From a virus (taxonomy: Duplodnaviria > Caudoviricetes), in the IMG/VR virus record IMGVR_UViG_3300037400_004179, positions 3,427-67,426 of that record: a DNA stretch of 64,000 bases, one strand, 5' to 3'. Position numbers and translations under genes: made by a program. Positions 14,372-54,997 of this stretch are shown here, in pieces. Positions within the stretch are counted from its first letter, which is position 1, and every line of letters begins with the position of its first letter. The notes beneath the pieces were generated by a model, which was not told where the DNA came from, did no database searches, and saw only the letters and a list, made by a program, of their open reading frames with translations.

Positions 14372-14638
14372 ATGCCATACCAACGCAAGACACGGACGGC
14401 GGAGGAACTCTCGATAGCCCGCAGCATAGCCGCGAAGTCGAGGAAGTCCCACAAGGGCGGACGCCCCGCGAACCCCAGCGCGAAGCGCATCTCGCACAAC
14501 ATCGGCCTCCACGCGGAAGCCTACCAAGTCTTCAGGACGCTCGCGGCGGCGGCGCAGAAGACGGTCGCGGACTTCATGGACGCAGTAGCCGAGTCGTTGA
14601 AGGCGAAGAACCCGAAGCACTTCCCTCCGTCAGCATAG
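14372..14638 (+). CDS. small basic DNA-binding protein (RHH/CopG-like)
   Basis: 88 aa; KGGRP followed by a beta-strand (SHNIGL) and two helices. Confidence 0.5.
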   Translation: MPYQRKTRTAEELSIARSIAAKSRKSHKGGRPANPSAKRISHNIGLHAEAYQVFRTLAAAAQKTVADFMDAVAESLKAKNPKHFPPSA

Positions 14639-34737: not shown

Positions 34738-35079
34738 GGTTGTCTCTCCATGTGTAGTTTTTCTCTATGTGATTCAGATGTGACACCAAGATTCCATTGC
34801 AGAATCCTACTATCACAAAAACAACGCAGAGCATTGTACCATAAGCCCAAACCCGCGTCAACCCGCCTCTACCTATTCAATGGTATTATACCAAACTGGC
34901 AGTATAGGCGCAATAGTGACAGGAAATCGCGCAGGGGTTGGGAATTTGGCGAGATATAAACACGTAATGACGCGTTGAATCATGTAGAGAAATGTTAGAA
35001 TCAAATATAAATTGTTAGAATCGGGGCGTGTTTTTTGTGACTTCCTTGCGACGCGCGGGCACTTTGAGCACCCTGCGCG

Positions 35080-38000: not shown

Positions 38001-41000
38001 GAAGTCCCGCGTAGGAATAGTCCGCCGCATCCACGGCGATGCGGTTGGAGCGGAGCGCCCTGCCCTGTTCGGACGCGCCCTGCATCTTCGCGACAGACGC
38101 CTCGCGGAACTCGCGCTGCGCCTTCGCGAGCTCAAGTTTCATCTCCTTGGCGCGCTTCTTCAGCTCTTCGACCGTCTCGGCGTCCGTGTCGGACGGAAGC
38201 TCCTCGACCATCCTCTCCATGTCGTCGCTTGCGGACTTCGCGTCGTTGAGCACGCTCGCGCACTGGTCGGCGTAGATGCCGAGCGCGACGTTTTCGTAGT
38301 CGCGGGTGGCGCGGCCCTTCTGGTAGACGGCATGGGCGAGCTTGCGCATGTACTCGCGGTTGGAAAGCAGTGCGTCGGCCTGCTTCATCAGAACTTCGTC
38401 CGTCTTCACCGCGTGCTTCGGCGGTTCCATGCCCGCCGCCGTCATTGCGCCTGCGATCTCGGCGTTGGTGAAGCCGTAGAGCTTCACGTCCTCCTCGGAA
38501 GTCGGAACGACGCCGATGCGGTCGGGGTCGAGGTCCTTTGTGTCGAACTCGACCTCGCCCATCTCCTTCTCGAGGTCGGCTATCTGGCGTTCGACTGGAA
38601 CGGGCTGGTTTATCTTCGCAAGCGCGATCGCCGCCGCCTGCGCCTCGCGGTCGGAGTTGATGCGCTCGTCGAGTATCTTTGCCGCGGCCTTCTTAGCGCC
38701 CTCGTCCTTGATGCCGAGTATGCCGTTCACTTCGGCGAGACGCACGATCATGTCGTCGATCTTGCCGGGCAGCGATTCGTCCACGCTCATCTTGGCAAGC
38801 GACTCGGCGGATGCCTCGAAGCGGCGCTTGGCGGCTTCGACGCTCTGGTCAAGCTCTGCCAGCACGCCCTCGCCCGTGGCTCGGGTAACTGCCGATTTCA
38901 GCAGCGCGACCGTGCCCTTCGTTATCACCGCGACGCGGTTCACTATCGGGATATTCGGCACTCCGGGCGCGCTCGAAGTGACGTCCCTTCTCAGCGCGGG
39001 TATCTCGATCGCGCCGCTTGGCTCGATACCAGACGAGCCGCGGTGTTCGTGCCACCACACGGGGAATCCGTACAGTCTGCCGATGATGCCGTCCTCGGCG
39101 CCCTTGCGCACGAACTGGTTGCACTTGTCGGCGAGGAACCGCGCGATCTCGTCATTGTCGGTGAGCGTCTTTCCGGCGAAGCTGCCCTCCGTGTCCACCA
39201 CCTCGATGCCGAACGGACTGTCGCCTTTCGCGGCGTTGAAGTCGGAAATCTTCTTCTTCGTCTCCTCGGCGATCCGCATTGTCCGCTCAAGCCGCTCCTG
39301 GTCGCTCTCCATGCCAAGCTGCGCGTTGCGAAGGTCGGAGCGCTGGTTCGACAGCGTGAGGTCGGCTTTGCGCAAACTCTCGGTCAGCTTGACGCGCTCC
39401 AGCATGTACTTTCCGAGAGGCCCTGCCGCCGCCGCCTTTGCCTCCTCCGCGGAGAGAACGGCGTCGTCCACGTCCTCCACTTCGTCAACGGACATGTCAT
39501 GATTCATCGCCTGGTTGATGAACTGCTGCTTGGTGGAAACCTTGTCGTAGGAATATACGTCGAACGTGCCCTCCGTGACATAGCGATGGATGCCGATCTC
39601 CGCGTTGAGGTTTCCTGCGCGGATGCCGCGCCCGTCGCGCTGGATGAGCCAGGCGGGTTTCCACGGCACGTCAAGGTGGTGTATCGCGACGAGACGCTTC
39701 TGCACGTTCGCGCCTTCGCCCATCTTCGGCGTGTTGCCGATGAGGATTCGCTTGCCGCCGCGGAAGTTCGTGTTGACGCCGTTGAAGTCGGCGAAGAGAG
39801 CACGCTTCATGTCGGCATTCTCCGCGTCGTGGATGAAGGCTATGTCGCTCTCGGGGATTCCGCGCCTGATGAGAAGCTGCTTTAGATGTGCGTAGATGTT
39901 GAACTTGCCGCGCAGCATGTTCTCGACCCCCACATCGCCGTTCAGCTTCTCGTCGGGATCGCCGTTTTCCTCGCCGTCCTCTTCGTCCTCCTCGGCTATT
40001 CCCTCGTCAACATCCTCGTCGAGTTCCTCCGGCGCGGAAGCGCGTTCCTGCGCAAAGGGGTTCTCGAAACGGATGTCGTAGCCGAGCGTGGCGGCGTTCT
40101 GGTCTATCCACGCGTTTATGTCGAACGGGCTTCCGGCCGGTTCAGCCGCATGCTTCTTGTCGGCCATCTTGTGCGAGACGTTGTACTCCGCCGCCGTCAG
40201 CGCCATCTCCTCGAACGCCGCGTAGACGGTCGAAATGTCCTCCACTCCGCCCTGCTGGTGGTCGAGGAACGGCTTGGGGCTGAACTTCGCGCCGTCGCTC
40301 CTCACGGCCCGCGCATGGCGGAATCCGTTCGCGTCCACCGGAGAGACGTAGAACTGCCAGTAGTTACCGCTCTTCGTGGCGAAGCCTCCGTCGGAAGTCT
40401 GCACGACGCGCGAGAACTTGCGCGGCTTCGGCACGCCCGAATCGCAGAACACGAGCTGCGTTCCGTCGAGAACGGTCTTGCCGTCCTTCGCCGCCTTTCC
40501 CGTGGACTTCTGCCAGATGCGGTAGATTTCGTCCGCGGCGGATTCGAGACGCCTGTGCTCGCTCTTGAGACCGAGAAGGGACGGGTCGATCGCGACGAGA
40601 CGACCCTCCGTAACGACTTTCAGCGGATTGTCGATCTTGGGGTCGTAGCCGCCCTTGAACGAATCAAGGCGCTTGTCCAGCTCTTCGACCTTGGCGACCT
40701 GCGTAGGGTCTGCGGGTATCTTGTGGACGATGGGCTTTCCGCCGATCATGAACGGACGCGGGATGTTGAGGTCTTCGTCGAGAACTACGTCCGCAAACGA
40801 ATGGAAGAACTTCTTCATCTCCACGAGGTTCTGGAACTTCGCGAAGCGCGTCTTCTCCTGATAGCCCTTGCCGGACGCCCTCGGCATCGGCTTCGTCTCC
40901 ACCACGCCGAACGCACGCGCCCAGTCGTCGAACCGCCGCACGCCCATTTCCGCCATCTTCGTCGGCGAAAGGAAGCGCATGGTCGTGTACATCTCGCTGA

Positions 41001-44000
41001 TGGAGTTGGAGATTATCGTGCCGGACGCGAATATCACGCCCTTGTCGCCGCCGTGAAGCTTCGACAGATAGCGGCACTTCATCTCCATGTCCTGCGCCCT
41101 CTGCGAGACGGAGCCGGTGACGCCCGACACGTTCTGCATTCGCGTCGTGATGTCGAGCCCCTTGAAGTTGTGGGCCTCGTCAACGAGAAGGTAGTCGACG
41201 CCGATGTTCTCGAAAGGCACGGTCGAATCCTTCTTGGACGCGTCGAGGAGCTTCTGCATCTTCGCCGTCTTGTTGGCGATCTTCTTCTCGATGCGCTTCA
41301 CGGCGTTGCCCTTCTTGCCGCTTTCGCGCGCCTCCGCCTCCATCATTTCCCGCAGATCGTCGATCTCCCTCTGGATGTACTCGGCCTGCACCTTCGGGTC
41401 CATGCCGATGAGCGAGAACGAGGAGTGCGGAACGACGATGCAGTCCCAGTCGCCGTTCGCGGCCTTGGCGAGGAACTTGCGTCTGTTCGCCGTGGCGAGG
41501 TCGCGTGACGTCGCCACAAGGACTCTCGCGCCGGGATAGGCCTCGAGAAACTCCTTCAGGACCTGCCCGGACTCCACCATGTGGTTCGGCACGGTCAGCA
41601 TCGGCTTCTGCGCAAGCCCAAGGCGGCGGAGCTGCATGCAGATGGAAAACATCTCGAAGCTCTTGCCGGCGCCCACGCAGTGCGCGATGCAGAGGTTGCC
41701 GCCGAGGACACCGCGCGCGATCGTCCGCTTCTGATGTTCGTAGCCAGGCGTGTTGGCGCGGCCTTTCCATACGTCGCTGATGCCGTCGAGCGTGATGAGG
41801 TCTGGGTCCCACCTGCGAGGAACGTCGTCGTTCATCATGTCGTTGTACGACCGCTTCACGCGCTCCGCGCGCTCGGGCGTCGCGACAAGCCATTTCGACA
41901 TTGCGGCGGTGAGGTCGTCGCGGAGCGATTCGGCCTGCTGTGTCTTCTGCGGGTTAAGCACGTAGTGGTACTTTCCGCCTCCGTCGTCCACTCTGTCCTT
42001 GATCGTAAGCGGGGAGCCGTTGAAGATTCGCTTAAGAAGCTCCTCGAGACTAATTGGTGAGCGGCGCGCATATTCGGGATTTACCGCTTCGCCCGTCACG
42101 CGCCAGGTGTCGGCCTTCTCGTCGTAGCCGACCGTGACGTGGTTCGGGTTGCAGCCGAACACGACTTCGGCGAGGAAGTCGCGGTACATGTCGTTCGGTA
42201 TGAACCTCTGGCCCATCTGGTACCGTATCTTCGTAGCGGGCTTGTCCTCCGGCTGAACCTTCTCCAGTTCCTCGACGTTCTTGTTGAACGCGGGATCTAC
42301 GTCTGCGGCCGCCCGCGCCTCGCGGAGCTTGCGGCGGACAGATCCGGAAAGATACTCGTCGCGCGTCTCGAACGAACCCGTGGACGGATTCTGGAAGACG
42401 TGTCCGCTCTGTACGAGCTGTTTCTGCACCTCGTCGGCGGGAAGTCCAGTCAGTTCTGCGATGCGCGGGATGTTCACGCGCCCGCACTCGTTGAGCGAGA
42501 TGCGAAGGCCGTCCATCGGCGTGTCGGCCTTGGTAGCCCTTGTCGCCCCGAAAAGCGTCCTTTTCTTCAGCGCGTCGGACTTGCGGAAGTTGGCCTTCTT
42601 CATCTTCGGCTTGCCGTTTGCGCCAACGCCGTCCGGCACGAGATCATAGGCTTCCAGCTGTTGCAGGACGATTCCGTCCGCATCGTCGAGGTCGAACAGC
42701 TCGCGCATGACCTTTTCGTTGTTGAAGGACTTGTACCGTGCAATCATCGCGTCATACGCCGTGTTGAGCGACAAGCGCTTCATCTTCACGGAATCTTCGG
42801 TTCCGTTCTTCTGCGCGTCGATATACGCGTTGTACGCATCCCGTAGGGCGATAAACTGCTTGACCGCGCCCAAGAACGAGAATCCCTTGTCGCTGAACTT
42901 CTTGGGCCACTTGATCTTGGACGTATCGACGGGAACGAGCATGTCCCCCTCGCGCTTCACGACCTTGTCGTCCACGATGCCGATGTTGCCGCGCCTGAGA
43001 CCCGACTTGTCGGCGTCGAGCGAAATCGGGTCCGGCTTCGACACTTCGTTGGCCGGTATGTATTTCAGCCCCTCCGCAGCCTTCTTGACGAGGGCGGGCA
43101 GTTCCGCAAGGTCCTTTGTGGCGACAAACTCCAGCGCGGGCGTGTTGCCGTACATGCTCGTGCCCCGCTTCACCGTGGCGAATATCATCTCGGGATGCTC
43201 CGCGAAGTATCCATTGATCTTCAGACCCTCGATCTCGCCGTTCCGCGCGAACGCGGAATTGTCAACTTCGCCCTTTTCCTTCTGAATGAAGATGATGTCG
43301 GACGCGACGGCTGTTCCGGCGTTCTTCTGCTGGTATTCGTTCGGGAGCCTTACGGCGCCGACGATCTTCCCGCCATGCTGCTCCAGGTAGCGGATGAGCG
43401 ACTTGTCGAGCTTGTCGAGCGTTCCCGTTGAGGTGATGAACGCCGCGACGCCGCCGACGCGAAGACGGTCAACGCCTCGCGCGATGAAATAGTCGTGTAT
43501 CGGGAAGTTCAACTTGTTGTACTCGGGGTCATGCAGGTGAATCTGCCCGAAGGGGACGTTCGACACGACCGCATCCATGAATCCGGGCGGTATCGGCGTC
43601 TCCTCGAAGCCCTGCACCTTCACGTTGGAAAGCGGATATAGGTAGCCGAGAATCTTGCCCGTCGTCTTGTCGAGCTCCACGGCCGTCCACTGCGCGTCCT
43701 GATAACGCCCCGTGCCGATGAAGTTGCCTACGCCGGCGGAGGTTTCGAGCATTCGCCCGCCGTTGAAGCCGGACGCCTTGAGCGCGGCATGTATGTCGCG
43801 GCAGACGTCTATCGTCGTGTAGAATGCGTCGATGGTCGCACGGTGCAGGGCCTTGAACTCCTCCGGCGTGAGAAGCTCGCGGAGCTGCACGTAGTTGTCG
43901 AACCCCTTCAAGCCGAAGCGAAGCTTACGCAGGGCTGCCTGCGTCTGCGCGGGAAGCTCCTTTGACGGAATGCCGCCGTACTTTTCGTATGCGTCCTTGT

Positions 44001-47000
44001 ACTTCTGGTCGAGAGCCTGTGGAAAGCCGCCGAAACCGACGTACCGCGCAAGCTTGGTCTTCTCCTCCGGAGTCGGCAGACGCCCCTCCCCTTCAAGGTC
44101 GTTGAGAAGTTTGATTACCTCGATGTTGTTCGCGACCTTCTCGCGGGGCGTCGAGTTCGTGAGCCATTCGGCGTCTTCGTCGGTAATGACGTAGTTGGAC
44201 GGTTTCTCGGGACTCGCCTTATGCGCGGCCTCAACCGGATCGGAAGCTGCTACTCCGTGTAAGGCGTCGGATTGTCCGGGTTCCAGTCGTCGCCCAGATT
44301 CGCCGCTTTCAGTGCTTCGTCCACTATGTTCCCTTGTGTCCGAAGGTGGTAGTTCAGCTTTTTGACCGTCTCCCTGTCCGCGCTCTTCGTGTAGTTCGGA
44401 AACAGGCTGTCGTACTTCGTCTCCGACCACAGAAACGCCCGCTGCGCGTCGTTCTCCGTCGTCGTGTACAGGCTGATCTGAGCTCCTTTCGCCCTGTTGA
44501 GTAGCCACGTTCCCGCGTCCCTCTTCTCCAGATGCTGAAGCAGGAGCTGCGGGTCGCAGTTCCGATATGCCGTCAGCGCTTGGCGCATCAGGCTTCCCAG
44601 ACTGTCGTACATCGACATTTTCGTTTCCTTCCTCGGCGGATACCGATATTGTACCATAAATTTCGTCGGCGCGTTCGTCGGAAACGCGCTCCAGTCCCTT
44701 TTGCTTGGCGACGGCGTTCCAGATGTCCTGTAGGACCGGCTTCGCCCGCTCGAACTTCGCGGGGTCGCTTTCGTAGATGTACGCGGCGAGAGACTTGAAG
44801 TCCTTGTGTCCGCTCTCCGAAAGAACGTCAACGAGCTTGCCGACGCCCGTGACGAGCCGACCGAACTTCTCGTAGTCGAAGCTCTTGTCGTCGAAGTCCA
44901 CCCCGGCTTCAAGGGGCCCTGAAATGGCAGCGTGAAGCGCGGTGTATCCGCCGTCCGCCGTGCGAGCGAGCTTCAATTCCTCCTCGTCAACTACAATATG
45001 CGGATTCTGTTTCTCCCACAATCTGTCGCCGAAGCGCGTATCGGTAGATTTCGTGAAGCCGTGGTCTTTCAGGAACTTCTCGCGGTTCTCGAAAAGAGGT
45101 TCCGCGCGCGCAACGACCTTTGGACCGTTGGCGACCGCGTAGAGATTTCCCTTTTCGTCCTCGGCGTAGCCAGTGACTTCGTAGCCGCCGAACGCGGCGT
45201 TGATGCGAAGAATGTCCAGAAAGGCATTGGCTGCTTTCCCTGGCGTTCCGTCGAAGATCGGGATTACGACGGTTCCGTCGGAGAAGTAGCGCCATCCGCG
45301 CTCGCTTGCCCGCTCGGATTTTCCTGCGACGACCGAGGCGAGAGGCCGTGTTCCCTTTCGTATGCCGCTTCCGCCTCGAACGTCCACCCCCTGTTGATTA
45401 GCTTGCTCAAGAGCTGCATTCGCCTCGAACTTTGTTCGTCCGTGCGTGATCCCCGCGGCAACTGCCCGATGAAAAGCAGTTCCTGATACTCTTGCGGCGT
45501 CAGGATATCCTTGGCTGGCTTTGACGTAGCTTCCATAACCTCTTTCCCTCAGTGACGCTATTATAGCATTTTTCGCGCCGCCCTGCTCGTAGGCGACGCC
45601 GCCGGGGTGGTACTTGTTGGCGTACCCCTGCGCCTGTCTGCGCGTGTAGCCGTGGGCCTGGACGATCTTGCCGTCCGGCATGAGGATGTCGAATGTGCGG
45701 CGCTCGTGCCTGTCGGGGTCGAGCTGCTTTGTGTCGAAGTCGAGCGCGTCGAGAATGTCCTTCGCCTTCTTCTCGGCGTCGGCGTCTTTCAGCTTCACCG
45801 TGCGCTTCTTCGGCTTCTGCTCAACCTGTCGGGATTCCTGGCTGCGGGTTTTTTCAGGCTTTTTGGCGTCCTCCTGCGGGCGCGTGACCTTGTATGTGCC
45901 AAAACTATTGTCTTCATACTCCTGGCGTCCATCCCATCTTTTTCCTGTGAAAGGGTCGGGGTATCCAAGCGCCCTGTCAACAGCGTCACGTGAACCGATT
46001 TTTTCATAGATTTTGGCAATGTTAATCTTTTCGCCAGGCCTTACCATGCCTCTTATCTGACGCCACGTATCGACAATGGCTTTTATCTTCGCCGCCCTGT
46101 TGCCTCCCTGGAATATCGTATTGGCAAATATCCTTTCCACCATTGCCGGATCGGGCTCGTCGGCAGTTGTTTGCGTTTGCACGGCGGAAGCAGTTGCGGG
46201 CTTTTCAGTTGTTCGGCTTTCCAGAACAGGTGGTGTTTGCTTTTCGGGCTTCGGAGCAAGTTCCGAAGTGCTGTTGTCGGCAGAAGGCGTTTCCGCTTTC
46301 GGCTTCGGTGTTTCCAAAACAGGCTTCTTTGTTTCAGGCGACGCCGCTTTCGTTTCAGAAACCTTTGCTTTTGTTTCGGCGGGCGCTTTCTTTGTTTCCG
46401 GTGTGGCGGGGGCGGGCTTGCCCGCGCGCTTCGCCTTGATTGCCTCCACCTTCGCTTTCGCTTCGGCGCGCTTCTTCGCCGCGGCGTCGGCCTTGGCGTT
46501 GATCTCCGCGTCCATCGTCTTCACGTCGGCGTCTTCGAGGATGCGCGTCCCGGCGGGATCCCAGTAGTCTGCGCGCTCCGTTGCGAGATCGTAAGCCTTT
46601 TCAAGCTGCGCCTTGTCGGTCTTGTCGGTCACGCCGAGCTCCTTCGCATATTCGGCGTTCAATTCCAGCTTGCCCTGGCGATTGAGGGCCGAGCGTATGT
46701 TTGAAGCCACTTCCGCGTAGATGTTCGACTTGCGCTGGCGGTATTCGTTGCGCCTCTTGGTGAGTGCTTCCATAGCAAGGAAACTCTCGTCCTGGAAGAG
46801 GTCCATCTGCTCGCCCTGCAAGAGATTCTTGTTGACCGCACCGCTCTGGAGCTGGCGCGTCATTTCGCGGGCATAGCCCGTAAACGCCTTGCCTTTCATG
46901 CCACTCTTCGCGGCGCGGAGCAGCACGGACTGGATGAACGCATTGCGCTCGTGCGCCCCCTTTGGGGCGGCCTGAGCGATTGTCGTTGCCTGATTGGGCG

Positions 47001-50000
47001 TTATGAGCCCTTCTTCGCCCGTTCCTCCCAGATCCGTTGCGCGGCGGACAGCTTCGGTAGCATCTGAATAAATGCTCCATGCAACGAGCCCTTTTCCCGA
47101 GAGGATTCCGGCCTTTTCTGCCTGTTCTCGGGTTGGCTTGGCGTGTTCGAGGAATCCGATGTAGTCATTTATTGTCCCTTTCTCGTCATGGATGTTCGCC
47201 ACGGCGTCAAATATCTCGGCATGATCCTTCGTGAAGCCGTCGGCTTCGCGGAAGACGTAGTATAGCATGGACTTATTCAGCCTGTCGGCCATCTCGCTGC
47301 GGTGCCGTCCGGTGATTACGGCGAGCTTGCCGTCCTTCGTAAGCCACACCGCACCAATGCCGCCCATCGTCGGATGCCAGTCGCCTGAAAGCGGCTTTGT
47401 GATGCCGCTTGTCCGGTTGGCGTCCTTCTTCATGTTCGGCAGAATCGCGTCGGAACGGTCAACCTTTTTCGGGTTCAGCCGAACGACAGGCGCTTCCTGC
47501 CCGAGAATCGACAGGAAATCAGACGATTCGGGCACTTTTTCTACGGCTTCAACGCCTGTCATGTCCATAGCATCGGCAAGCGTCTTGCGCTCCTCTTCGG
47601 TCAGCGGCGCCTTGGCCGCTTGCGCAACATCGTCCACAGACGCGATTTTCCGCTCTCTGGGCGCGTTTTCGGGTTCAGGCGTGACCTTCTTCGTCTCGGA
47701 GCCGCCCTGCGCTTCTGCGGGCTTGGCGGGGGTTTCCGCGACGATAGGCGCGGGGTTTTTTGTCTCGGTTGCCGTTTCGGGCGCCTGTTCCTGTGTCGGG
47801 GCGGGCGCTTCTGGCTCTTCGACGGCGGTATGGTCGGCGTTTGCGTTAGCCGGGATGAACTCCACGCCGCCGTTCGCGGTCGCGCTCTCCTTCTCGATAC
47901 GGCTGGCGATGACCTCAAGATCGGCGTCGTTCAGCTTGCCGACCTTGCCGAAAAGCGCATGGGAAATCCGCTGGCCTATCGAAGGATTGTGCCCGCGCTT
48001 CTGGAGCCACTGCGAAAACGCCTCTTCGCGGAGCTTGTCTTCGGGCAGCCTGCGCTCCTCGCCGCGAGCCTCGTTCATCTCGCGCATCTGGCCGAGAAGC
48101 CTCCCGTACTCCGTGTCGGGCGACACGCGCGAAAGCATCTCCTGCCTTGCCGCCGGATCGCCCTTGCCAGCCGCATGTCCCGATTCGTGGGCAAGGACGC
48201 GGTTCATGTCCGCCGCGCTCTCGATGTTGTCGAGAACCATGACGACCGTTCCGTCCGGGCATGTAAAGCCGCCGGCGTCGGAACCGCCGATCAACGTGGG
48301 CGGATACGTCACCGAGCCGTCCTTGCCCGTGACGAACAGCTGGGACACGTCCCTGATGCCGTGGAAATCGCCGTTCTTGGCAATCTCGCCCTGCACGACG
48401 CGGAATACGTCGCCCACATGGTCGGCAATCTCCGTCGGACGCTGAAACTTCGTCTGCGTCAGCTGTTCGGCGTAGCGCCGCTTCACGGCGTTGTCGAGGG
48501 ACTGCTTCTGGTTCGTGAGGGCGTAGAAGTCGGCGCACCTCTGGGCCTCGCCAAAGTCGTCTATGGCGAATACGCGCTCGGGGTGTATCTCGTCGCGAAC
48601 TTCGTATGTGCCGTCCCCGTTCTCGATCATCGTTACGCCGGACTTCTCGTCGTACATTTCGTTGACGACTTCCGTCTTCCCCGTCACGCCGTCGGTGCGA
48701 ATCGACTTGCTGAACTTCGGGACAGGCTTTCCGTCGGCCCCGGTCTCGGTCTGCACCTCGAAACGGCGCGGCGATTCGCCGTATTCCGCCACGTCCTTCT
48801 GGAGCTTGTAGGTGGACTGCTTCGTCAGCTCGTCGGCCATCTTGCCGAGATAGCCGCCCGCCTTTTCAAGCGCGCCCCTGAGCGCATCGGGGTTGTCGTG
48901 CATCGCGTTCCACGCGTTCGCGAACGCAGCACGCTGGCCGAGCGACATTGCGCCGACCTGCTCCTTCGTAAGTCCGCAGACGCTTTCAAGCTGGTTGCCG
49001 ATGTCGCGTTTCGCGTCGATGTGCTGTATTGCGGTCTTCCCTCCGGCTACCGCCGTCTGCGCGCCCATCTGGAGAAGCATGGCCAGCATCGTGTTCCACT
49101 GTCCGCCAACCGTATACTGCCCGCCCTCGTCGGTAAAGGCGTGCCTCAACTCCTCCATGACGCCGCGGTACTCGGAGTCTTTCTTCCCCCAGCCGAGAAC
49201 GTCGCTGAAAAAATACTGAACGTTCTCTTCGGGAAGCTCCTCAAAAAGCATGTCGCCGAAGCCCGTTACGTCCGTCAGCCTGTTGTAGTTCTGGTAGACG
49301 CGGTTTGCCGCGCGCCCGATCTTGCCACCGTGCTTGCCGAGCAGGGAGAAGGTCTTTCCTGCGAGAGGACGCGTGATCTCGCCGACCGTGTTTTCCAGAA
49401 GGTTCTCGGCGAAGCTGTTGCGAAAAGCCTTTCCGAGCGTATCGCCCTTGTCGCCCTCGGACGCCACAACGACGTTTCCGTTCTGATCAAGCGCGTATTC
49501 GTCACGCGCCATTTCGCGCATTCCCTGTGCCGTGCCGGACATCGTGGCCGGCATAGCCTTCGCCGCATCGACGCCGACCTTCTGCGCGGCGACCTTCGCA
49601 AATTCCTTTGCCCCTTCCGATGTGAAGAGCTTTTTTAGACCCTCCTTTGTCAGCAAGTTGAAGCCGAGCTTTGCGGTCTGTGCGCCCTTCATGAGCATGC
49701 CGCCAGCCGCCATCTCGCCGACGTAGCGGACGGACGGCATGCCGCCCACGACGATCTTGTCGGTGAAGCCCCTGTCGGTTTCGTCGAGCTTTTTCCGCGC
49801 CTCCTCCTGTGCGCCAACAGATTCCTTGAACTTCGCGTCGACAAGCTCTTTCAGGCGCTTCTCGAAGTCTGCACGAGGCTCCTTGTCGCCTCTTTGGGTC
49901 TGTGTGATGTTTGCGCCGAGCAGGTAGGCCGCCTCGTCCGCCATCATGTCGTCGAGCGTGTCGCGACGATCCCCCATCATCATGCCGAACATGCCGCGAC

Positions 50001-50457
50001 CGAGCGCCGCCTGCTCCGGCGTCTGCTCGCGTCCGTTCACGACGCGCTTCTGTAGATGCGGCTTGCCGTCGATGAAGTCCCTCATCCGCGTCAGGCGGTC
50101 TTTCTGCGTCTGCTCGAAGTCTCCGCCGGCGAACGGGACGAGATTCGCGAAGGCATAGCGGCCCGCCCCGTCGCGCTGGCCCGTCTGCGCCTGCCACTCA
50201 AGTTCCATCAGCTCGCCCTTGCTTCGCTTCACCTTGTCGCTCTTCTCCGGCGCCTTCGGAGAGTAGACCGAAGATGTGCCGAGAGAGCCGCGCAGTTCGT
50301 CTTCGCTAATGCCAAGCTGCGCGGCAAGCTTGGATTCCGTCTTCTGACCTTCCCCGTCGTCGATGAATTTCGGGCCGGATGCCTGCGCATCGTCGATGAA
50401 CTTCGGCGCAGACGGCATTTCGTCGTCGATGAATTCAGGCGTCTTGAAATCGCTCAC
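35080..50457 (-). CDS. giant (~5125 aa) DarB-like polyvalent virion protein: HExxH peptidase, ParB-like, kinase-like, N6-adenine MTase, SNF2 helicase and helical C-terminus
   Basis: Likely GTG start at 50457 overlaps upstream stop (GTGA); VLAHESGH (~48180); ITGRHR (~47310); LETSAGVGNF, VELD, SNVPFG (43250-43750); HCVGAGKS, VDEAHNFK, QRDGRGIRAGN (39600-41700). Confidence 0.88.
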   Translation of the reverse strand: MSDFKTPEFIDDEMPSAPKFIDDAQASGPKFIDDGEGQKTESKLAAQLGISEDELRGSLGTSSVYSPKAPEKSDKVKRSKGELMELEWQAQTGQRDGAGRYAFANLVPFAGGDFEQTQKDRLTRMRDFIDGKPHLQKRVVNGREQTPEQAALGRGMFGMMMGDRRDTLDDMMADEAAYLLGANITQTQRGDKEPRADFEKRLKELVDAKFKESVGAQEEARKKLDETDRGFTDKIVVGGMPSVRYVGEMAAGGMLMKGAQTAKLGFNLLTKEGLKKLFTSEGAKEFAKVAAQKVGVDAAKAMPATMSGTAQGMREMARDEYALDQNGNVVVASEGDKGDTLGKAFRNSFAENLLENTVGEITRPLAGKTFSLLGKHGGKIGRAANRVYQNYNRLTDVTGFGDMLFEELPEENVQYFFSDVLGWGKKDSEYRGVMEELRHAFTDEGGQYTVGGQWNTMLAMLLQMGAQTAVAGGKTAIQHIDAKRDIGNQLESVCGLTKEQVGAMSLGQRAAFANAWNAMHDNPDALRGALEKAGGYLGKMADELTKQSTYKLQKDVAEYGESPRRFEVQTETGADGKPVPKFSKSIRTDGVTGKTEVVNEMYDEKSGVTMIENGDGTYEVRDEIHPERVFAIDDFGEAQRCADFYALTNQKQSLDNAVKRRYAEQLTQTKFQRPTEIADHVGDVFRVVQGEIAKNGDFHGIRDVSQLFVTGKDGSVTYPPTLIGGSDAGGFTCPDGTVVMVLDNIESAADMNRVLAHESGHAAGKGDPAARQEMLSRVSPDTEYGRLLGQMREMNEARGEERRLPEDKLREEAFSQWLQKRGHNPSIGQRISHALFGKVGKLNDADLEVIASRIEKESATANGGVEFIPANANADHTAVEEPEAPAPTQEQAPETATETKNPAPIVAETPAKPAEAQGGSETKKVTPEPENAPRERKIASVDDVAQAAKAPLTEEERKTLADAMDMTGVEAVEKVPESSDFLSILGQEAPVVRLNPKKVDRSDAILPNMKKDANRTSGITKPLSGDWHPTMGGIGAVWLTKDGKLAVITGRHRSEMADRLNKSMLYYVFREADGFTKDHAEIFDAVANIHDEKGTINDYIGFLEHAKPTREQAEKAGILSGKGLVAWSIYSDATEAVRRATDLGGTGEEGLITPNQATTIAQAAPKGAHERNAFIQSVLLRAAKSGMKGKAFTGYAREMTRQLQSGAVNKNLLQGEQMDLFQDESFLAMEALTKRRNEYRQRKSNIYAEVASNIRSALNRQGKLELNAEYAKELGVTDKTDKAQLEKAYDLATERADYWDPAGTRILEDADVKTMDAEINAKADAAAKKRAEAKAKVEAIKAKRAGKPAPATPETKKAPAETKAKVSETKAASPETKKPVLETPKPKAETPSADNSTSELAPKPEKQTPPVLESRTTEKPATASAVQTQTTADEPDPAMVERIFANTIFQGGNRAAKIKAIVDTWRQIRGMVRPGEKINIAKIYEKIGSRDAVDRALGYPDPFTGKRWDGRQEYEDNSFGTYKVTRPQEDAKKPEKTRSQESRQVEQKPKKRTVKLKDADAEKKAKDILDALDFDTKQLDPDRHERRTFDILMPDGKIVQAHGYTRRQAQGYANKYHPGGVAYEQGGAKNAIIASLRERGYGSYVKASQGYPDAARVSGTAFHRAVAAGITHGRTKFEANAALEQANQQGVDVRGGSGIRKGTRPLASVVAGKSERASERGWRYFSDGTVVIPIFDGTPGKAANAFLDILRINAAFGGYEVTGYAEDEKGNLYAVANGPKVVARAEPLFENREKFLKDHGFTKSTDTRFGDRLWEKQNPHIVVDEEELKLARTADGGYTALHAAISGPLEAGVDFDDKSFDYEKFGRLVTGVGKLVDVLSESGHKDFKSLAAYIYESDPAKFERAKPVLQDIWNAVAKQKGLERVSDERADEIYGTISVSAEEGNENVDVRQSGKPDAPSADGISELRPAAPASASGEEGRGNVATQQGERSSDQPVHDDGERRAAGVSVVGDEVRQPVSELHEERGQGDGQKAELPPSDTREHSGRSTESGESGRRLEPGQSDALHGVAASDPVEAAHKASPEKPSNYVITDEDAEWLTNSTPREKVANNIEVIKLLNDLEGEGRLPTPEEKTKLARYVGFGGFPQALDQKYKDAYEKYGGIPSKELPAQTQAALRKLRFGLKGFDNYVQLRELLTPEEFKALHRATIDAFYTTIDVCRDIHAALKASGFNGGRMLETSAGVGNFIGTGRYQDAQWTAVELDKTTGKILGYLYPLSNVKVQGFEETPIPPGFMDAVVSNVPFGQIHLHDPEYNKLNFPIHDYFIARGVDRLRVGGVAAFITSTGTLDKLDKSLIRYLEQHGGKIVGAVRLPNEYQQKNAGTAVASDIIFIQKEKGEVDNSAFARNGEIEGLKINGYFAEHPEMIFATVKRGTSMYGNTPALEFVATKDLAELPALVKKAAEGLKYIPANEVSKPDPISLDADKSGLRRGNIGIVDDKVVKREGDMLVPVDTSKIKWPKKFSDKGFSFLGAVKQFIALRDAYNAYIDAQKNGTEDSVKMKRLSLNTAYDAMIARYKSFNNEKVMRELFDLDDADGIVLQQLEAYDLVPDGVGANGKPKMKKANFRKSDALKKRTLFGATRATKADTPMDGLRISLNECGRVNIPRIAELTGLPADEVQKQLVQSGHVFQNPSTGSFETRDEYLSGSVRRKLREARAAADVDPAFNKNVEELEKVQPEDKPATKIRYQMGQRFIPNDMYRDFLAEVVFGCNPNHVTVGYDEKADTWRVTGEAVNPEYARRSPISLEELLKRIFNGSPLTIKDRVDDGGGKYHYVLNPQKTQQAESLRDDLTAAMSKWLVATPERAERVKRSYNDMMNDDVPRRWDPDLITLDGISDVWKGRANTPGYEHQKRTIARGVLGGNLCIAHCVGAGKSFEMFSICMQLRRLGLAQKPMLTVPNHMVESGQVLKEFLEAYPGARVLVATSRDLATANRRKFLAKAANGDWDCIVVPHSSFSLIGMDPKVQAEYIQREIDDLREMMEAEARESGKKGNAVKRIEKKIANKTAKMQKLLDASKKDSTVPFENIGVDYLLVDEAHNFKGLDITTRMQNVSGVTGSVSQRAQDMEMKCRYLSKLHGGDKGVIFASGTIISNSISEMYTTMRFLSPTKMAEMGVRRFDDWARAFGVVETKPMPRASGKGYQEKTRFAKFQNLVEMKKFFHSFADVVLDEDLNIPRPFMIGGKPIVHKIPADPTQVAKVEELDKRLDSFKGGYDPKIDNPLKVVTEGRLVAIDPSLLGLKSEHRRLESAADEIYRIWQKSTGKAAKDGKTVLDGTQLVFCDSGVPKPRKFSRVVQTSDGGFATKSGNYWQFYVSPVDANGFRHARAVRSDGAKFSPKPFLDHQQGGVEDISTVYAAFEEMALTAAEYNVSHKMADKKHAAEPAGSPFDINAWIDQNAATLGYDIRFENPFAQERASAPEELDEDVDEGIAEEDEEDGEENGDPDEKLNGDVGVENMLRGKFNIYAHLKQLLIRRGIPESDIAFIHDAENADMKRALFADFNGVNTNFRGGKRILIGNTPKMGEGANVQKRLVAIHHLDVPWKPAWLIQRDGRGIRAGNLNAEIGIHRYVTEGTFDVYSYDKVSTKQQFINQAMNHDMSVDEVEDVDDAVLSAEEAKAAAAGPLGKYMLERVKLTESLRKADLTLSNQRSDLRNAQLGMESDQERLERTMRIAEETKKKISDFNAAKGDSPFGIEVVDTEGSFAGKTLTDNDEIARFLADKCNQFVRKGAEDGIIGRLYGFPVWWHEHRGSSGIEPSGAIEIPALRRDVTSSAPGVPNIPIVNRVAVITKGTVALLKSAVTRATGEGVLAELDQSVEAAKRRFEASAESLAKMSVDESLPGKIDDMIVRLAEVNGILGIKDEGAKKAAAKILDERINSDREAQAAAIALAKINQPVPVERQIADLEKEMGEVEFDTKDLDPDRIGVVPTSEEDVKLYGFTNAEIAGAMTAAGMEPPKHAVKTDEVLMKQADALLSNREYMRKLAHAVYQKGRATRDYENVALGIYADQCASVLNDAKSASDDMERMVEELPSDTDAETVEELKKRAKEMKLELAKAQREFREASVAKMQGASEQGRALRSNRIAVDAADYSYAGLRGMVQTELGGMEIPGKMDAEIGRLAENFKNLDEQQRQMAVERLKLFSQKIVDDIKRGDKTRSMTPRGAGNELKRVTRNYNDALNQIEVHADEAGGTLIGLADQLYPSWGKWLRAIGEYHCFMNPDIDEQGVIDAIRRDVGQFLDDGIDEETVRDVLTGFGQNYRQSRYDSQRKMNDLKAQSLAKRQRDYMLENGRLPPQTGMVRDEPSDETRALRREVQEMKKDIDQQEGGPRALKGALDSAKTRIKNQIADLERAILRGEKIERARRTVVEDVELHNLKARRDELRKTYDDLFGEKSTLTDEQRRARAEKALQKVLENALERLGRARTGDFSNNRVANPVTSDEIEHLREQIRWTNETYRALKKAAFPEGTPEEIEKRNAMRMKARERAILRIQEKILNGDIRPTVRKTPPMPEDMQSRYDAMGEELRRAHRKMRQLRAEAREMLRPVYMRKIGDAYRFIDGVWKMATASLDLTQVGNQTGSLAVAHPAITARSFTQSISAFTSEANAENIESDLMTEPVVKEAVDNKWLHWKKAGDFAENRGDRVEFFDAIDRGFTIGGRTVRLTDIPVYGTAIANSDRLYATYINTVSANLYSTIVKDPGLFPSGASTFEKKMVCDMINVMNGSGTLSKNARSVLGKVLWAPGLVDSQFKRHLGYTIWHPWMASAEEDGSGTMKERARMSWLGTKEFLKSHIGAMLLGGLLLALFGRDDDKDKFKRASLAQKAIMLMAPRIGHTQLDFTGGEVAFGRLGNKLLSGVKEGGNGRTTPIRDYFGEVAHFLRGRVTPLISNAFAALAGKDYAGQDYGPLEVMLSLAPISLRDAGKSIWENGRDGEWLTGIIGASLVMTGFGKGTYRKDDYKILSNKFREDYSSIEKIARDPMLDESEKEELIENIRTSNPLMKPEVAATIIGHVRQVDSEEREINRSIKKLELARTNPNPNINVAEVQKEIEKALLELNAEKEKVVKMIRDNR
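44250..44618 (-). CDS. nested +1-frame gene inside giant gene (122 aa; weak TnpV-like resemblance)
   Basis: TGGTACAAT at 44656-44648, AAGGAAACGAAA-ATG; GC3 bias lies in this frame while giant frame has A/T third positions. Confidence 0.6.
   Translation of the reverse strand: MSMYDSLGSLMRQALTAYRNCDPQLLLQHLEKRDAGTWLLNRAKGAQISLYTTTENDAQRAFLWSETKYDSLFPNYTKSADRETVKKLNYHLRTQGNIVDEALKAANLGDDWNPDNPTPYTE
45264..45536 (-). CDS. nested +1-frame gene inside giant gene (90 aa)
   Basis: TGCTATAAT at 45568-45560, GAGGGAAAGAGG before ATG; GC3 bias shifted to this frame. Confidence 0.5.
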   Translation of the reverse strand: MEATSKPAKDILTPQEYQELLFIGQLPRGSRTDEQSSRRMQLLSKLINRGWTFEAEAAYEREHGLSPRSSQENPSGQASADGATSPTEPS

Positions 50458-51962
50458 TTCGTGGCCTCCTTGGTTGAATGGAAGTTCCCGTCGCTCCACA
50501 TGTAGTATGTTTTGCCCTTGCGTGTCACACTTCCGCCGACGGGCACATTCATGCCATCGGTGTATTCCACGCCATCCTTCCATCCACCATTATCGCCTGA
50601 CTTTATCTCGCCTTTATCCGCCGTCGGCTTCGACTGTCCGCCGGCGTACTTCTTCTTGAGAGACTCGATGCTGTCGAGGTATTCCTGCTGGAACTGCGCT
50701 TTCTTTTCGGCGGGAAGTCCCGAAAAGACCTGCGCGGCCTCGTTGTGCCCGTCCTGCGCGAGCTTGTAGGCGAAGATGTCCTCGTTCAGCTGCTGGGACC
50801 GCTCGCCCTTGTCGATCCGCGCCTGAAGCTCCTGTCGGCGGAGTTCGAGCTTGTCCTGCTCAAGCTTCAGCTCCGCCTCGCTCTTGCCGCCGCCCTTCGG
50901 CGCAACCTGCGCGACTTCGAGATTGCCCTTGTTCTTCAGCTCCTGCACCTCCTTCGCGCTCTCGGCGCGCACCTGTGCCGCCTGTACGCTCGCGGGCGTG
51001 TTCGCCCCGACCTGCCACTTGAAGGGATTAAGGCCGCCGAACTCCGACACGGTGGACGCGCGGGCGTCCGCCTCGCTGACGTTGTTGAGCGTTGCAAACG
51101 AGGTCGAGAACTGGTTCATCACGCGCCCGAGGTCGAGCGGGACAAGCGACTTGGACGCCTTGGAGCCGTCGCTCTTGTTCACGGCCATGTAGAATGCGGG
51201 ATCGGCAATCGGCTTCCCGTCGTCGTCAACCTGCACGTAGGCGGCGATTTTCGACAGCGAGGACTTGCGCCCCATCGCCTCGGACTGCGCGTTGGCGCGC
51301 TCGATGGACGAACCGCCCACGGACACGACGCGGTACTTCTTGCCGTTGTGCTCCTTGACTTCGCCAAGCCCCTCGTTCATCAGAAGCCGAAGCGCGTTCT
51401 TCGCGGCCTGCGCGGTCGTGAAGTTTCGCTCGGCCCTCTGCATTTCGCGCTCCTTCTGGCTTTTCAGCATGAAGTCATACGCCTGCTGTCCGCGCGTCTT
51501 CGCATCGGCGAGACGCGCCGCCTTCTGCTGCTCGATCGCGTCCGCCCACGACGTGGCCGTGCCCTGGTTCGGGGAGATGCCGGAAGAAGCCGCCTCCATC
51601 ATCCTGAGAGACTGCGGGGCTTCCACCGCGTTGCCTTTCAAGTCCTCCCATGTCGTCGCTCCTGTCTTCTGATCAACGACGCGCACATAGCCGCCGAACG
51701 CCGTGCGGCCTTTGCCGTCCTTGCCGACAACCGTCTGGGGCTGTGGCTGCTGCGTGGGTGTGGCCGTCGGCGCCGGCTTTGCCTTCATCGCGTCGAGCCG
51801 TGCCTGCGGTATGCTCGCGGCAGCGTGCATCTCGTCGGTGATGCCGGGGGCGCGGCCAATCTCCGCAACGGATTTCCTGTACACCTCGTCGGGCGCCATA
51901 TTCTGAATGTCGTTGATCTCCTTGAGCTTCTGATCGAACTCTGCATCTGTAAGGTTAGCCAT
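50454..51962 (-). CDS. putative internal virion / DNA-ejection protein
   Basis: 502 aa, Ala/Gln/Lys-rich coiled coil, directly upstream of giant gene. Confidence 0.55.
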   Translation of the reverse strand: MANLTDAEFDQKLKEINDIQNMAPDEVYRKSVAEIGRAPGITDEMHAAASIPQARLDAMKAKPAPTATPTQQPQPQTVVGKDGKGRTAFGGYVRVVDQKTGATTWEDLKGNAVEAPQSLRMMEAASSGISPNQGTATSWADAIEQQKAARLADAKTRGQQAYDFMLKSQKEREMQRAERNFTTAQAAKNALRLLMNEGLGEVKEHNGKKYRVVSVGGSSIERANAQSEAMGRKSSLSKIAAYVQVDDDGKPIADPAFYMAVNKSDGSKASKSLVPLDLGRVMNQFSTSFATLNNVSEADARASTVSEFGGLNPFKWQVGANTPASVQAAQVRAESAKEVQELKNKGNLEVAQVAPKGGGKSEAELKLEQDKLELRRQELQARIDKGERSQQLNEDIFAYKLAQDGHNEAAQVFSGLPAEKKAQFQQEYLDSIESLKKKYAGGQSKPTADKGEIKSGDNGGWKDGVEYTDGMNVPVGGSVTRKGKTYYMWSDGNFHSTKEATK

Positions 51963-52530: not shown

Positions 52531-53724
52531 TCATTCAGGCTGCCATTGCCATTGCTGAGATATCCCCTGTGCGTATTTGTGGTTGTACTTCACGAATATA
52601 TATTCAGTGTAGGCATCGCAGTAATATCTCGGAGTCTGCGACATTGATGGAGCCTTCGTTCCAACTTTCGTGAAGTCTGCGCCAACACCTTCCATCAAGC
52701 TTTTCGAGAAGTCATAGTCGAAGCACTTGAAGCTCCAGTTGGTTCCGCTTTCGTGCGTCAAATGCTCGAACTTGTATTGACACAATCCTCTGCTGGCGTC
52801 ATAGTTGTTTGCGCGGTAAAGTACAAATGCGTATGCATCAACTACATCGTCACGCCTCAAATCAACATAGGCGTATGCGTCGCCATAAACACCTTCTTGG
52901 CAATATTCGTATCCAGACTCATATTGTCCGTCAACAGTATGATAGTAGGAGACCCAGTCCAGAGCCATACTGTGAGTCCATGATTTTCTGCCCCTGCTTT
53001 CGCCAGTCAATATGGCAGGCACTATATACGCATAGGTGCCTTCCCAGCGGTTCGCGACATCTCCAGTATATTCGGTTATGACGCCGCCGCTGGACTTGTG
53101 GTATTTGCCAGTTCCACTCTTGATCCCCCTCTCACTGAATGTGTATGACCTGTCGAAATCGCCAGTAACTCCGTCATTAGACCATTGTATGCACTGATAG
53201 CAAGGTTGGAACAATATCCAATACATAAGACGCATAACATCAATATCGAAAGCTTGCCATTTCAAAGATATTCTTGCTCCGTCAGTTGCGTCAGCATACG
53301 GACACCTGTTCATTATGTCAGTATAGTCAAACATCAATTCTGGGGCAACTGTCCGAATGTAGTCTTTGACACTATAGCCGACGCTGTAGTCGTATCTGCC
53401 CATCGTCGGCATTGACTGTATTCCCTGATTCAAAAATACCTCGCATCCATAAGCCTGATATGTCTTCTTCATGTGGTTGTATATGATTGACCAAGCCTGT
53501 TCCATGAGATAGTATTTCCCCCAGTATGTATATGTAGGGGCAAGTCCGATGTTCGTGTAGTTGAAGCACCAAGTGCGAACAGACTCGCATATATAGCAAA
53601 TGTCCTCGTATCTGTATGGAGCCGCAAGAGACGCAATGTCAGAGGTTGGAATTATCTGACCCGTCAATGCTGGTTCAACGCCAGTTGTATCCACATATTT
53701 GTAGTCTGATGCTTGTGTCAACAT
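52531..53724 (-). CDS. low-GC Tyr/Trp-rich tail or receptor-binding candidate
   Basis: Start ATG 53724 one base after upstream TGA; AT-rich codons unlike the genome. Confidence 0.5.
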   Translation of the reverse strand: MLTQASDYKYVDTTGVEPALTGQIIPTSDIASLAAPYRYEDICYICESVRTWCFNYTNIGLAPTYTYWGKYYLMEQAWSIIYNHMKKTYQAYGCEVFLNQGIQSMPTMGRYDYSVGYSVKDYIRTVAPELMFDYTDIMNRCPYADATDGARISLKWQAFDIDVMRLMYWILFQPCYQCIQWSNDGVTGDFDRSYTFSERGIKSGTGKYHKSSGGVITEYTGDVANRWEGTYAYIVPAILTGESRGRKSWTHSMALDWVSYYHTVDGQYESGYEYCQEGVYGDAYAYVDLRRDDVVDAYAFVLYRANNYDASRGLCQYKFEHLTHESGTNWSFKCFDYDFSKSLMEGVGADFTKVGTKAPSMSQTPRYYCDAYTEYIFVKYNHKYAQGISQQWQWQPE

Positions 53725-53725
53725 A

Positions 53726-54997
53726 TCAAGATATATACTCCCAAATTTGTATTGTCGGTGCCCCCCTGTAGTCGTGCGTAGGCTCCAAGTTGGCGTTGAA
53801 ATAGTAAAGCGGAACATAGGTCTTGTATCGGGTTTGTGCTGGGATTGAACTCGCTCCCGTCACTATACTCGCGGTGAATAAAGTAGCTTCCATGTCGACT
53901 TCAAGATACGCGTAGCCAGCGGCAGACACTGTTGCCGAATCAACATTATACCAAGTTCTCGCACGCAGATACATTCCGTCATTGATGGTGTGCGTCTCTG
54001 GATCGTAGGAGAACGCGCAGCAGGAACAATGCCCGCCGCTTCCGCTTCCTCCTCCGTCGCCGCCACCACCAATGGTTAGACGCGTAAGCTTAACCATCGA
54101 ATCGACGTACTGAACAACCTTTTTCTCGCCCGTCGCGGCAACCGTCGACACCTTCGCAACCAAGACAGCATATGTCACATAACCGCTGGTGCTGCCCGAA
54201 TCTGAAACTGGCTGCGTATCAAAGCAGGCGGAACTATCCTCCGGTGTCGCATCATCCTGATTGGGCACCGTCGCATTGAGCCAAACGTCGCCGTCGGAAC
54301 TGCCGTTTGGAAGCGTATACCATCCCGCAGGAAGAGACTGCGCGGCGGCAAGTCCCGTCGGTTCGACATAGATGCGCCCGATCATCAACGGTCCGAGCTT
54401 GTTATTAGGGAGCGTGCCGGGAAACCAAATCACCCATGCACCTTCACCGCCGTTCTCACCCTGCGCCCAGCGGACCTCGTAAGGATGAAGCATGTGCGTG
54501 CCGAGCGTGACGCACGATGTGCAGATGTCGTACTGGTCGCCGTCGTTCTCGGATGAGCCGAAGCGACAGACGCGGAAGTTGAACAGCGCACCCTCCTTTG
54601 TGTCCTCGTCGTCGAACTCCACCTTGTATCCGCCTGCCGAAGACGCGTCCTGCGTGACGTGCGCATAGAGGGCGTCCGGCATGTCGTCTGGATCGAGGCA
54701 GTCAAGCGAAACGGTGTGGGATTCCGTGTCCACGTCCGCGATCTCCACTTCATGTCCGTCCACGAGGACGCATCCGGGCGGAGCGAAGATGTAGTATTCC
54801 CCGTCCTCGGGGTCGTAGTCCACCTCGAACGGACGCGCGTAGGGCACATCCTCGGCGGAGGGCCCCGGCGACACGGGAATCTGCGCGGCGGATTTGCCGC
54901 GCTCGTTCTCTGTCGCGACGACACGCCTTTCGAGAAGCTCCACTGTGCGGCGAAGCTCCTCTATCTCGCGTTCAAGCTCCCTTGTTTTTTCGCTCAT
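53726..54997 (-). CDS. modular tail-associated protein
   Basis: 423 aa; N-terminal coiled coil, beta-rich domains, GGGGDGGGSGSGG linker; GC drops in 3' half. Confidence 0.5.
   Translation of the reverse strand: MSEKTRELEREIEELRRTVELLERRVVATENERGKSAAQIPVSPGPSAEDVPYARPFEVDYDPEDGEYYIFAPPGCVLVDGHEVEIADVDTESHTVSLDCLDPDDMPDALYAHVTQDASSAGGYKVEFDDEDTKEGALFNFRVCRFGSSENDGDQYDICTSCVTLGTHMLHPYEVRWAQGENGGEGAWVIWFPGTLPNNKLGPLMIGRIYVEPTGLAAAQSLPAGWYTLPNGSSDGDVWLNATVPNQDDATPEDSSACFDTQPVSDSGSTSGYVTYAVLVAKVSTVAATGEKKVVQYVDSMVKLTRLTIGGGGDGGGSGSGGHCSCCAFSYDPETHTINDGMYLRARTWYNVDSATVSAAGYAYLEVDMEATLFTASIVTGASSIPAQTRYKTYVPLYYFNANLEPTHDYRGAPTIQIWEYIS

Follow-up and report, generated by a model that had tools for sequence, protein, structure and literature searches.

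A 90-codon open reading frame (ORF) embedded in a giant gene of a tailed rumen phage is probably a real overlapping (overprinted) protein-coding gene. The ORF occupies positions 45264–45536 on the minus strand of the stretch of DNA analysed here (64,000 nucleotides, positions 3,427 to 67,426 of the IMG/VR virus record IMGVR_UViG_3300037400_004179; hereinafter, the window) and is read in the +1 frame of a giant polyvalent gene that consists of a single open minus-strand frame of 5,167 codons (35080–50583). The predicted product of the nested ORF, P0002, overlaps residues ~1683–1773 of the giant protein. The window covers most of the 67,426-bp virus record, for which CheckV gives a completeness of 100%. 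The case for the nested gene is built on its start signals, on the maintenance of its reading frame in related genomes and on the footprint of selection in both frames.

Putative start signals and conservation of the nested frame

The start signals noted in the initial annotation could all be located. An extended −10 promoter element, TGCTATAAT, is present on the minus strand at 45568–45560, where the giant frame reads AAT GCT ATA ATA (N-A-I-I). It is followed by the proposed ribosome-binding site, a purine-rich stretch resembling a Shine–Dalgarno (SD) sequence (GAGGGAAAGAGG, 45550–45539, minus strand), and by the 90-codon ORF, which opens with MEATSKPAKDILTPQEYQELL and runs from the ATG at 45536 to the TAA at 45266–45264. 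The assigned frame also holds, as the offset of 5047 from the giant ORF leaves a remainder of 1; a second nested ORF in the same giant gene (ATG at 44618) is in the same frame. The length of the nested ORF alone is not beyond chance, given that 15 same-strand alternative-frame ORFs of at least 60 amino acids are found within 40000–50000. The claimed shift of codon bias to the nested frame is borne out in part: the G+C content at the third codon positions of the giant frame drops from 0.78 to 0.48–0.63 over the nested ORF, but that at nested position 3 is 0.67–0.68, only slightly higher than giant position 1 at baseline (0.62). The shift is much stronger over the second nested ORF, whose nested position 3 reaches a G+C content of 0.81.

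The promoter motif is found in the window more often than expected by chance, with five matches to TGNTATAAT (0.14 expected) and eight matches to TGNTAYAAT (0.6 expected). Five of the seven other sites of this class are intergenic or located at gene boundaries, mostly with an SD sequence and an ATG a few tens of nucleotides downstream. The site at 14339 (plus strand) has GAAAAATG.TATAAT in common with the nested element, as well as a spacing of 23–24 nt to the ATG. Furthermore, the codons that make up the nested element are rare in the giant gene (AAT accounts for 15% of Asn, GCT for 8% of Ala and ATA for 24% of Ile codons), and the joint probability of the motif, given NAII and the codon usage of the giant gene itself, is ~0.003. 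Thus, although the NAII peptide is kept in distant homologues of the giant protein, it does not dictate the motif, because three rare codons are needed.

Two other sites of the class deserve description in their own right. At 14339–14374 (plus strand), the element TGGTATAAT includes the TAA stop codon of the upstream ORF (12994–14346), and the next ATG lies 24 nt further on; the boundary between the two genes is thus very compact and is organised like the nested promoter. A further TGGTATAAT is found at 53945–53953 (minus strand), within the ORF 53726–54997. An in-frame ATG at 53893, 49 nt downstream of this element, opens ATGGAAGCTACT, the first 11 nt of which are identical to ATGGAAGCTACG of the nested ORF; the element also lies ~130 nt upstream of the start of the ORF 52531–53817 and might act as an internal promoter that drives either the next gene or a short isoform.

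For evolutionary comparison, the window was set against three relatives for which DNA is available, so that the sample comprises four genomes of one clade. The relatives are IMGVR_UViG_3300031993_000105 (L002, L005), OCTW011614962.1 (L006), which was recovered in a metagenome scan, and JAEEHL010000167.1 (L008), a contig from a Verrucomicrobia metagenome-assembled genome (MAG) that was recovered in a genome scan. Over 5.6 kb, their nucleotide identity to the window is 84% (L002/L005), 86% (L006) and 73.5% (L008), and the giant frame is open in L002, L006 and L008. The ATG, the open +1 frame and the stop position of the nested ORF are kept in all three relatives; the encoded protein is 90 amino acids long in L006 and L005/L002 and 83 in L008, which has an in-frame deletion of seven codons in the tail. 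By contrast, the shared 5.6 kb contains six other alternative-frame ORFs on this strand, which served as controls, and every one of them loses the start or gains stops in at least one relative. The −10 motif is identical in all four genomes, whereas the 60 nt directly upstream are 57% identical in L008; the leader segment between the motif and the ATG shows 91% nucleotide identity with L008, and the SD-like stretch is purine-rich in the relatives as well (AAGGAAAGGGG in L005 and AAGGGAAAGAGG in L008).

Wider searches added little to this set. No match was obtained in tblastn searches of the segment and of P0002 against phage records and against plasmids, scans of IMG/VR yielded a single related contig, and the search of 401 Verrucomicrobiota genomes returned only G001 and one spurious match, L013. 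The latter was rejected as a relative, the match being out of frame over a 319-amino acid ORF that by eye belongs to an oxidoreductase-type gene.

Selection in two overlapping frames

The first ~55 codons of the nested ORF (45372–45536, minus strand), which encode a predicted helical domain, bear the marks of purifying selection in both frames. In this core, 3 of 38 giant-frame synonymous sites differ from L008 compared to a background fraction of 0.40 (p = 1e-5); synonymous differences are reduced in all six pairwise comparisons, with another pair showing 0 of 52 versus 0.21. The differences at giant codon positions 1, 2 and 3 number 15/10/7 in the core, as opposed to 305/250/691 in the background. 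In each of the three deep comparisons, giant position 1, which corresponds to nested position 3, changes most, and giant position 3, which corresponds to nested position 2, changes least, so that the nested codon positions follow the order 3 > 1 > 2 (binomial p = 3e-4, 1e-4 and 3e-3 for the three deep pairs). The core is not slowly evolving overall: positions 1 and 2 show 25 changes in 56 codons, and only position 3 is depleted; its giant-frame identity to L008 is 68%, compared to an average of 71%.

In a simulation, sequences evolved at the background synonymous rates while preserving the observed giant-frame protein. Under this giant-frame constraint alone, the identity of the +1 protein to that of L008 is 46±6%, compared to an observed 76%, which also exceeds the 68% identity of the giant frame over those codons. 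Moreover, 64% of the simulated sequences gain a stop codon in the +1 frame. When the simulation test was slid over the 5.6 kb, z exceeded 4 only at the two nested ORFs. An OLGenie-style partition of the substitutions gave a dNN/dNS ratio of 0.38 for the nested frame and of 0.5–0.6 for the giant frame, and dSN, at 0.22, is below that of all 20 background blocks.

The giant frame is indeed protein-coding over the overlap, as it is kept in homologues down to 30% identity. Six homologous giant proteins with 30–53% identity (P0003, P0004, P0006, P0019, P0024 and P0025) retain the peptide across the overlap, with the pattern GG.KNAII...YP.AA.V.G..F.RAV..GI...GW.Y.SDGTVVIPI; of these, P0003, P0004, P0006 and P0019 also have the kinase-like module. 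This conservation rules out a compensated double frameshift, whereby the true giant protein would be encoded in the +1 frame. Taken together, the comparisons indicate that this stretch represents true dual coding, with the giant frame apparently being the older one and the small gene an overprint.

The remainder of the nested ORF, a tail of ~30 residues (45264–45371, minus strand), has a Ser/Pro/acidic composition and is predicted to be disordered. Over the tail, the giant-frame omega is ~0.4, and the end of the tail overlaps the strongly conserved start of the kinase-like domain of the giant protein, with the giant-frame peptide ERGWRYFSDGTVVIPIF.

The predicted nested proteins, the giant gene and its modules

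P0002 is a protein of ~10 kDa with an isoelectric point of 5.1, without cysteine and without a hydrophobic N-terminus. In the AlphaFold2 model built from the four-row alignment, the predicted local distance difference test score (pLDDT) is above 90 at residues 10–50 and below 50 at residues 69–80. Helices are predicted at residues 8–11, 14–25, 33–48 and 53–62, followed by the disordered tail, so that P0002 is predicted to consist of a compact helical domain of ~60 residues and a disordered extension. The motif ‘LTPQEYQELL’ and weak Foldseek matches to the C-terminal helix-turn-helix (HTH) domains of NarL, LiaR and VraR (E ~3, TM 0.3–0.4) hint at a possible four-helix HTH domain of the LuxR/NarL type; P0002 has no match in Pfam. 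Neither P0002 nor P0033, the product of the second nested gene, matched TnpV (PF14198) at E values up to 5, and no match to this family was found in the six-frame translation of the whole virus record at E values up to 10.

The second nested gene (44250–44656, minus strand, with its promoter) starts with the ATG at 44618 and comprises 122 codons, preceded by an SD sequence and by an extended −10 element of its own, TGGTACAAT, at 44656–44648. Two cases in the same giant gene, with the same type of promoter, are thus supported. The second gene is located ~650 nt downstream of the first, in a giant-frame linker just before the methyltransferase. Here, the giant-frame omega is ~1.2, that of the +1 frame is 0.36–0.51, and the synonymous fraction is 0.03: the giant-frame linker evolves neutrally, the +1 frame is under purifying selection, and the signal is even stronger than that of the first nested gene. 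On short ENA contigs, homologues of P0033 with 56–98% identity are annotated as genes in their own right. We compared the two nested proteins and rejected kinship between them, as they are unrelated.

The giant gene (35080–50583, minus strand) encodes a protein with an HExxH motif, a ParB-like part, the kinase-like module, a DarB-like N6-methyltransferase with an SNF2 helicase, and a long C-terminal part. The middle part matches phrog_10089 (‘DarB-like antirestriction’, 1e-295), as well as methyltransferase and helicase PHROGs; because of these matches, we classify it as a polyvalent, virion-type protein as defined by Iyer et al. (2017; PMC5512222). At its 5′ end, the giant ORF overlaps the end of the upstream ORF 50454–51962 by 130 nt (50454–50583, minus strand), and given this overlap, the true start of the giant gene may be further downstream. 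Products of DarB-like polyvalent genes are thought to be co-injected with the DNA and to act against host defences.

Directly after the giant gene lies an integrase gene (33511–34737, minus strand; phrog_1), the presence of which makes the phage probably temperate. Upstream of the integrase gene, an AT-rich spacer contains two tandem promoter-like elements, TGGTATAAT at 34885 and TTGACG-17-TGGTACAAT at 34833 (region 33511–34893, minus strand). As for the host, one relative, L008, comes from a contig of a rumen Verrucomicrobia MAG. This 10-kb contig, JAEEHL010000167.1, consists entirely of one open giant-gene frame of 3,391 codons that is open at both ends, so that the host assignment rests on the binning of a phage fragment and not on an integrated prophage.

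The initial annotation placed the nested ORF ahead of a kinase-like domain, which is roughly right: the ORF corresponds to giant residues ~1683–1773, and the weak kinase-fold matches span residues ~1744–1894 (44900–45350, minus strand), so that the two overlap at the edge. Giant residues 1620–1960 were modelled with a mean pLDDT of 65; the region that coincides with the nested domain forms a helical segment of lower confidence, which is followed by a better-predicted alpha/beta domain. Nearly all of the best 50 VIA-align matches to the module are protein kinases, with weak Z scores of 4.2–6.4 over model residues ~125–275, and the matches obtained with Foldseek have E values above 0.1. Iyer et al. 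(2017; PMC5512222) reported truncated kinase domains from polyvalent proteins encoded by Verrucomicrobia (pro)phages. The label ‘kinase-like’ accordingly seems plausible for the modelled domain. Next to it, a short helical domain (…KPVLQDIWNAVA) at 44704–44925 (minus strand; giant residues ~1886–1960) shows 50–75% identity across over 20 giant proteins (1,600–6,100 amino acids) that are diverse in other respects, and its conservation is far above that of its surroundings.

Alternative explanations and relation to known overlapping genes

A number of observations weigh against a nested protein-coding gene. At the promoter, no −35 match was found upstream of the −10 element, as is usual for promoters of the extended −10 type, and the element has TGC where the other seven sites have TGG. 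The spacing of the SD-like stretch is unusual, with the ATG 2 nt after AGAGG or 10 nt after GAGGG. The dNN/dNS ratio of 0.38 is matched or beaten by 2 of the 20 background blocks, and no +1 selection was detected in the tail, where omega is 0.9–1.0 and the identity to L008 is not above the simulated one. The +2 frame likewise exceeds the simulated null (z ~4). Whenever synonymous change is lost, identity rises in the +1 and +2 frames alike, and the frame assignment therefore rests on the open frame together with the codon-position pattern. The gene is seen in four genomes, three of which are close, and the deep comparison involves a single 10-kb MAG contig (L008). Finally, P0002 has no match in Pfam or PHROGs, no homologues among proteins of near or greater length and a low protein-atlas recognition score, and fold searches with its model returned no significant match (Foldseek E > 1 against PDB and 0.38 against BFVD; best VIA-align Z 4.2).

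One alternative explanation would be a chance ORF in a locally slow or recently exchanged stretch, with TGCTATAAT as a by-product of the conserved NAII. Alternative-frame ORFs of 60–230 amino acids are indeed common in this gene, which has a G+C content of 60%, NAII is conserved in distant homologues, and the ParB-like region is likewise low in synonymous divergence (0.21–0.26). However, the core is less similar to L008 than the average, with only position 3 depleted, a pattern that recent exchange would not give, the motif is not forced by NAII, and the control ORFs are not conserved. The simulation, the sliding profile, the control ORFs and the synonymous suppression largely refute this explanation, which we regard as very improbable. 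Even less credible is a trans-frame product, in which ribosomes translating the giant frame would slip to +1 and yield a truncated giant protein with the nested C-terminus. An A-rich run, GCG AAA AAT, is present just upstream, but in the window and L006, a +1-frame TGA at 45551–45549 precedes the ATG by four codons, with no slippery site in that interval. In L005 and L008, the aligned triplet is TCA/TTA, and the next +1 stop upstream is a TAA inside the −10 box, leaving an entry interval of nine codons; moreover, the ATG and the SD sequence are conserved, as independent initiation would require. More serious, albeit still improbable, is an untranslated nucleotide element: the promoter would be real, but the conserved ~165 nt would function at the RNA or DNA level, for instance in a small RNA, as a leader or as a binding region for a regulator, with the +1 frame being incidental. 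The enrichment of the promoter motif holds equally for such an element, the suppression of synonymous changes does not name the kind of element under selection, with the +2 frame also exceeding the null, and no homologues of the peptide were found. Against it stand the three-base periodicity in the +1 register in three deep pairs and the fact that +1 is the only alternative frame without stops, with the ATG and the stop kept in 4/4 genomes compared to 6/6 broken control ORFs and to the 64% of simulated sequences that gain a stop. In addition, an SD-like stretch precedes the ATG, and no unusual RNA structure is predicted (fold z = +0.46).

A different question is what a translated product would do. 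The initial annotation proposed that the nested protein is the cognate regulator of the adjacent kinase-like module, inseparable from it by design, and that such pairing is general. The regulator could be an inhibitor, an immunity factor or a chaperone, and the design would be shared by polyvalent effector genes at large. The position would fit: the module has kinase matches in the fold searches (Z 4.2–6.4), and its helical segment and first strand are encoded by the DNA of the nested gene. Truncated kinase domains are known from polyvalent proteins of Verrucomicrobia (pro)phages (PMC5512222), and the second nested gene stands before the methyltransferase module. This evidence is positional, however: P0002 resembles no inhibitor, antitoxin or chaperone in family or fold, the two nested proteins are unrelated to each other, and the co-occurrence of gene and module is seen within one clade. 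Furthermore, the separate host-type promoter suggests different timing, and an independent early or prophage function fits at least as well. A complex prediction for P0002 residues 1–66 with the 341-residue module gave no answer (score 0.00), which counts neither for nor against binding. Overall, a dedicated regulator of the kinase-like module appears unlikely. The broader proposition, that giant effector genes carry serial overprinted, independently transcribed genes at module boundaries, each encoding the dedicated partner of the adjacent module, is more doubtful still. If true, it would mean that module and partner are inherited and exchanged as one inseparable cassette, with the small proteins possibly made at a different time; in the present gene, the kinase-like module and the DarB methyltransferase-helicase would each have a partner of their own.

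We therefore return to the overprinted gene with its own promoter as the favoured explanation. Host sigma-70-type RNA polymerase would start at the internal extended −10 element, near 45553, yielding a 17-nt leader (45537–45553, minus strand) that includes the SD-like stretch; ribosomes would initiate at the ATG at 45536 and stop at the TAA ending at 45264. The part under selection would be the helical domain of ~60 residues, with the disordered tail merely extending as far as the next stop codon in the +1 frame. In the giant protein, this stretch of DNA specifies a conserved helical segment along with the first strand of the kinase-like module, and both frames are constrained. The promoter appears to have been built on the conserved NAII through rare A/T-ending codons, which suggests that the small gene was overprinted on the older giant frame. 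Since the gene is preceded by a host-type promoter of its own, within a long cluster of same-strand genes in a temperate phage, we favour independent expression; our best guess is that the nested protein is made apart from the giant protein, soon after the DNA enters the cell or else from the prophage, and that it is a small binding or adaptor protein.

If so, this is an unusually clean case, in which two proteins are encoded by a single stretch of 165 nt that has a promoter directly upstream. It would provide a concrete example of overprinting in a large double-stranded DNA phage, where genome-size pressure is not an obvious explanation. Together with the second nested gene, it suggests that a DarB-like polyvalent gene can be a small operon within a gene. 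Gene callers permit one frame per stretch of DNA, so that such genes are invisible in phage annotation. Should the small proteins cooperate with the enzyme modules or target them, they would be missing components of phage counter-defence; should they be independent early or prophage-expressed factors, polyvalent genes would represent a new hiding place for accessory genes.

In our literature search, we came across no account of genes nested in genes of the polyvalent or DarB-like kind, but several known systems are similar in part. One is Rz1 inside Rz of lambda and its relatives, an embedded same-strand +1 spanin gene with its own ribosome-binding site and start, both products of which are functional (PMC5295617; PMC6139136). 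As in Rz1/Rz, the small gene described here lies wholly within a larger phage gene on the same strand and is read in the +1 frame, from an ATG of its own that follows a putative ribosome-binding site. The proteins differ, in that Rz1, a lipoprotein, carries a signal sequence and a lipobox Cys, whereas P0002 has neither Cys nor signal sequence. Rz1 is not known to have a promoter of its own, in contrast to the dedicated extended −10 element of the nested gene. Rz and Rz1 are known partners, whereas a partnership of P0002 would be hypothetical. Finally, the gene that hosts P0002 is a 5,167-codon gene for a DarB-like polyvalent virion protein.

Autonomously transcribed inserts known as morons are found in the late operons of temperate phages, between genes and usually with a terminator. 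The nested gene resembles morons in having its own host-type promoter in a long gene cluster of a temperate phage, which suggests independent expression, but it is overprinted within a gene, and no terminator-like site was found after it on its strand. In the temperate Pseudomonas phage Fc02, olg1 and olg2 are transcribed in the lysogen, and one of them mediates superinfection exclusion (PMC9936078). These are likewise alternative-frame overlapping ORFs in a temperate phage and set a precedent for accessory genes expressed outside the lytic programme; however, they adjoin the repressor gene and their expression has been measured, whereas the nested gene lies inside a virion-protein gene and its expression is inferred. 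Overprinting is best known from small viruses, such as phiX174, with B in A, K, and E in D (reviewed in PMC8227390 and PMC3494269). The likeness extends to a new frame on an older one, dual purifying selection, suppression of synonymous changes in the older frame, and a young, partly disordered protein without relatives. Those overprints are usually ascribed to tight limits on the size of very small genomes, whereas here, the phage is a tailed temperate one with a genome of 67 kb, one gene of which takes up 15.5 kb, and the overprint falls on a segment that is conserved within a multidomain effector. Compared to Rz/Rz1 and to the small-virus cases, the nested gene thus differs in its own promoter, in its giant polyvalent host gene and in an overlap that falls on a conserved rather than a spacer segment.

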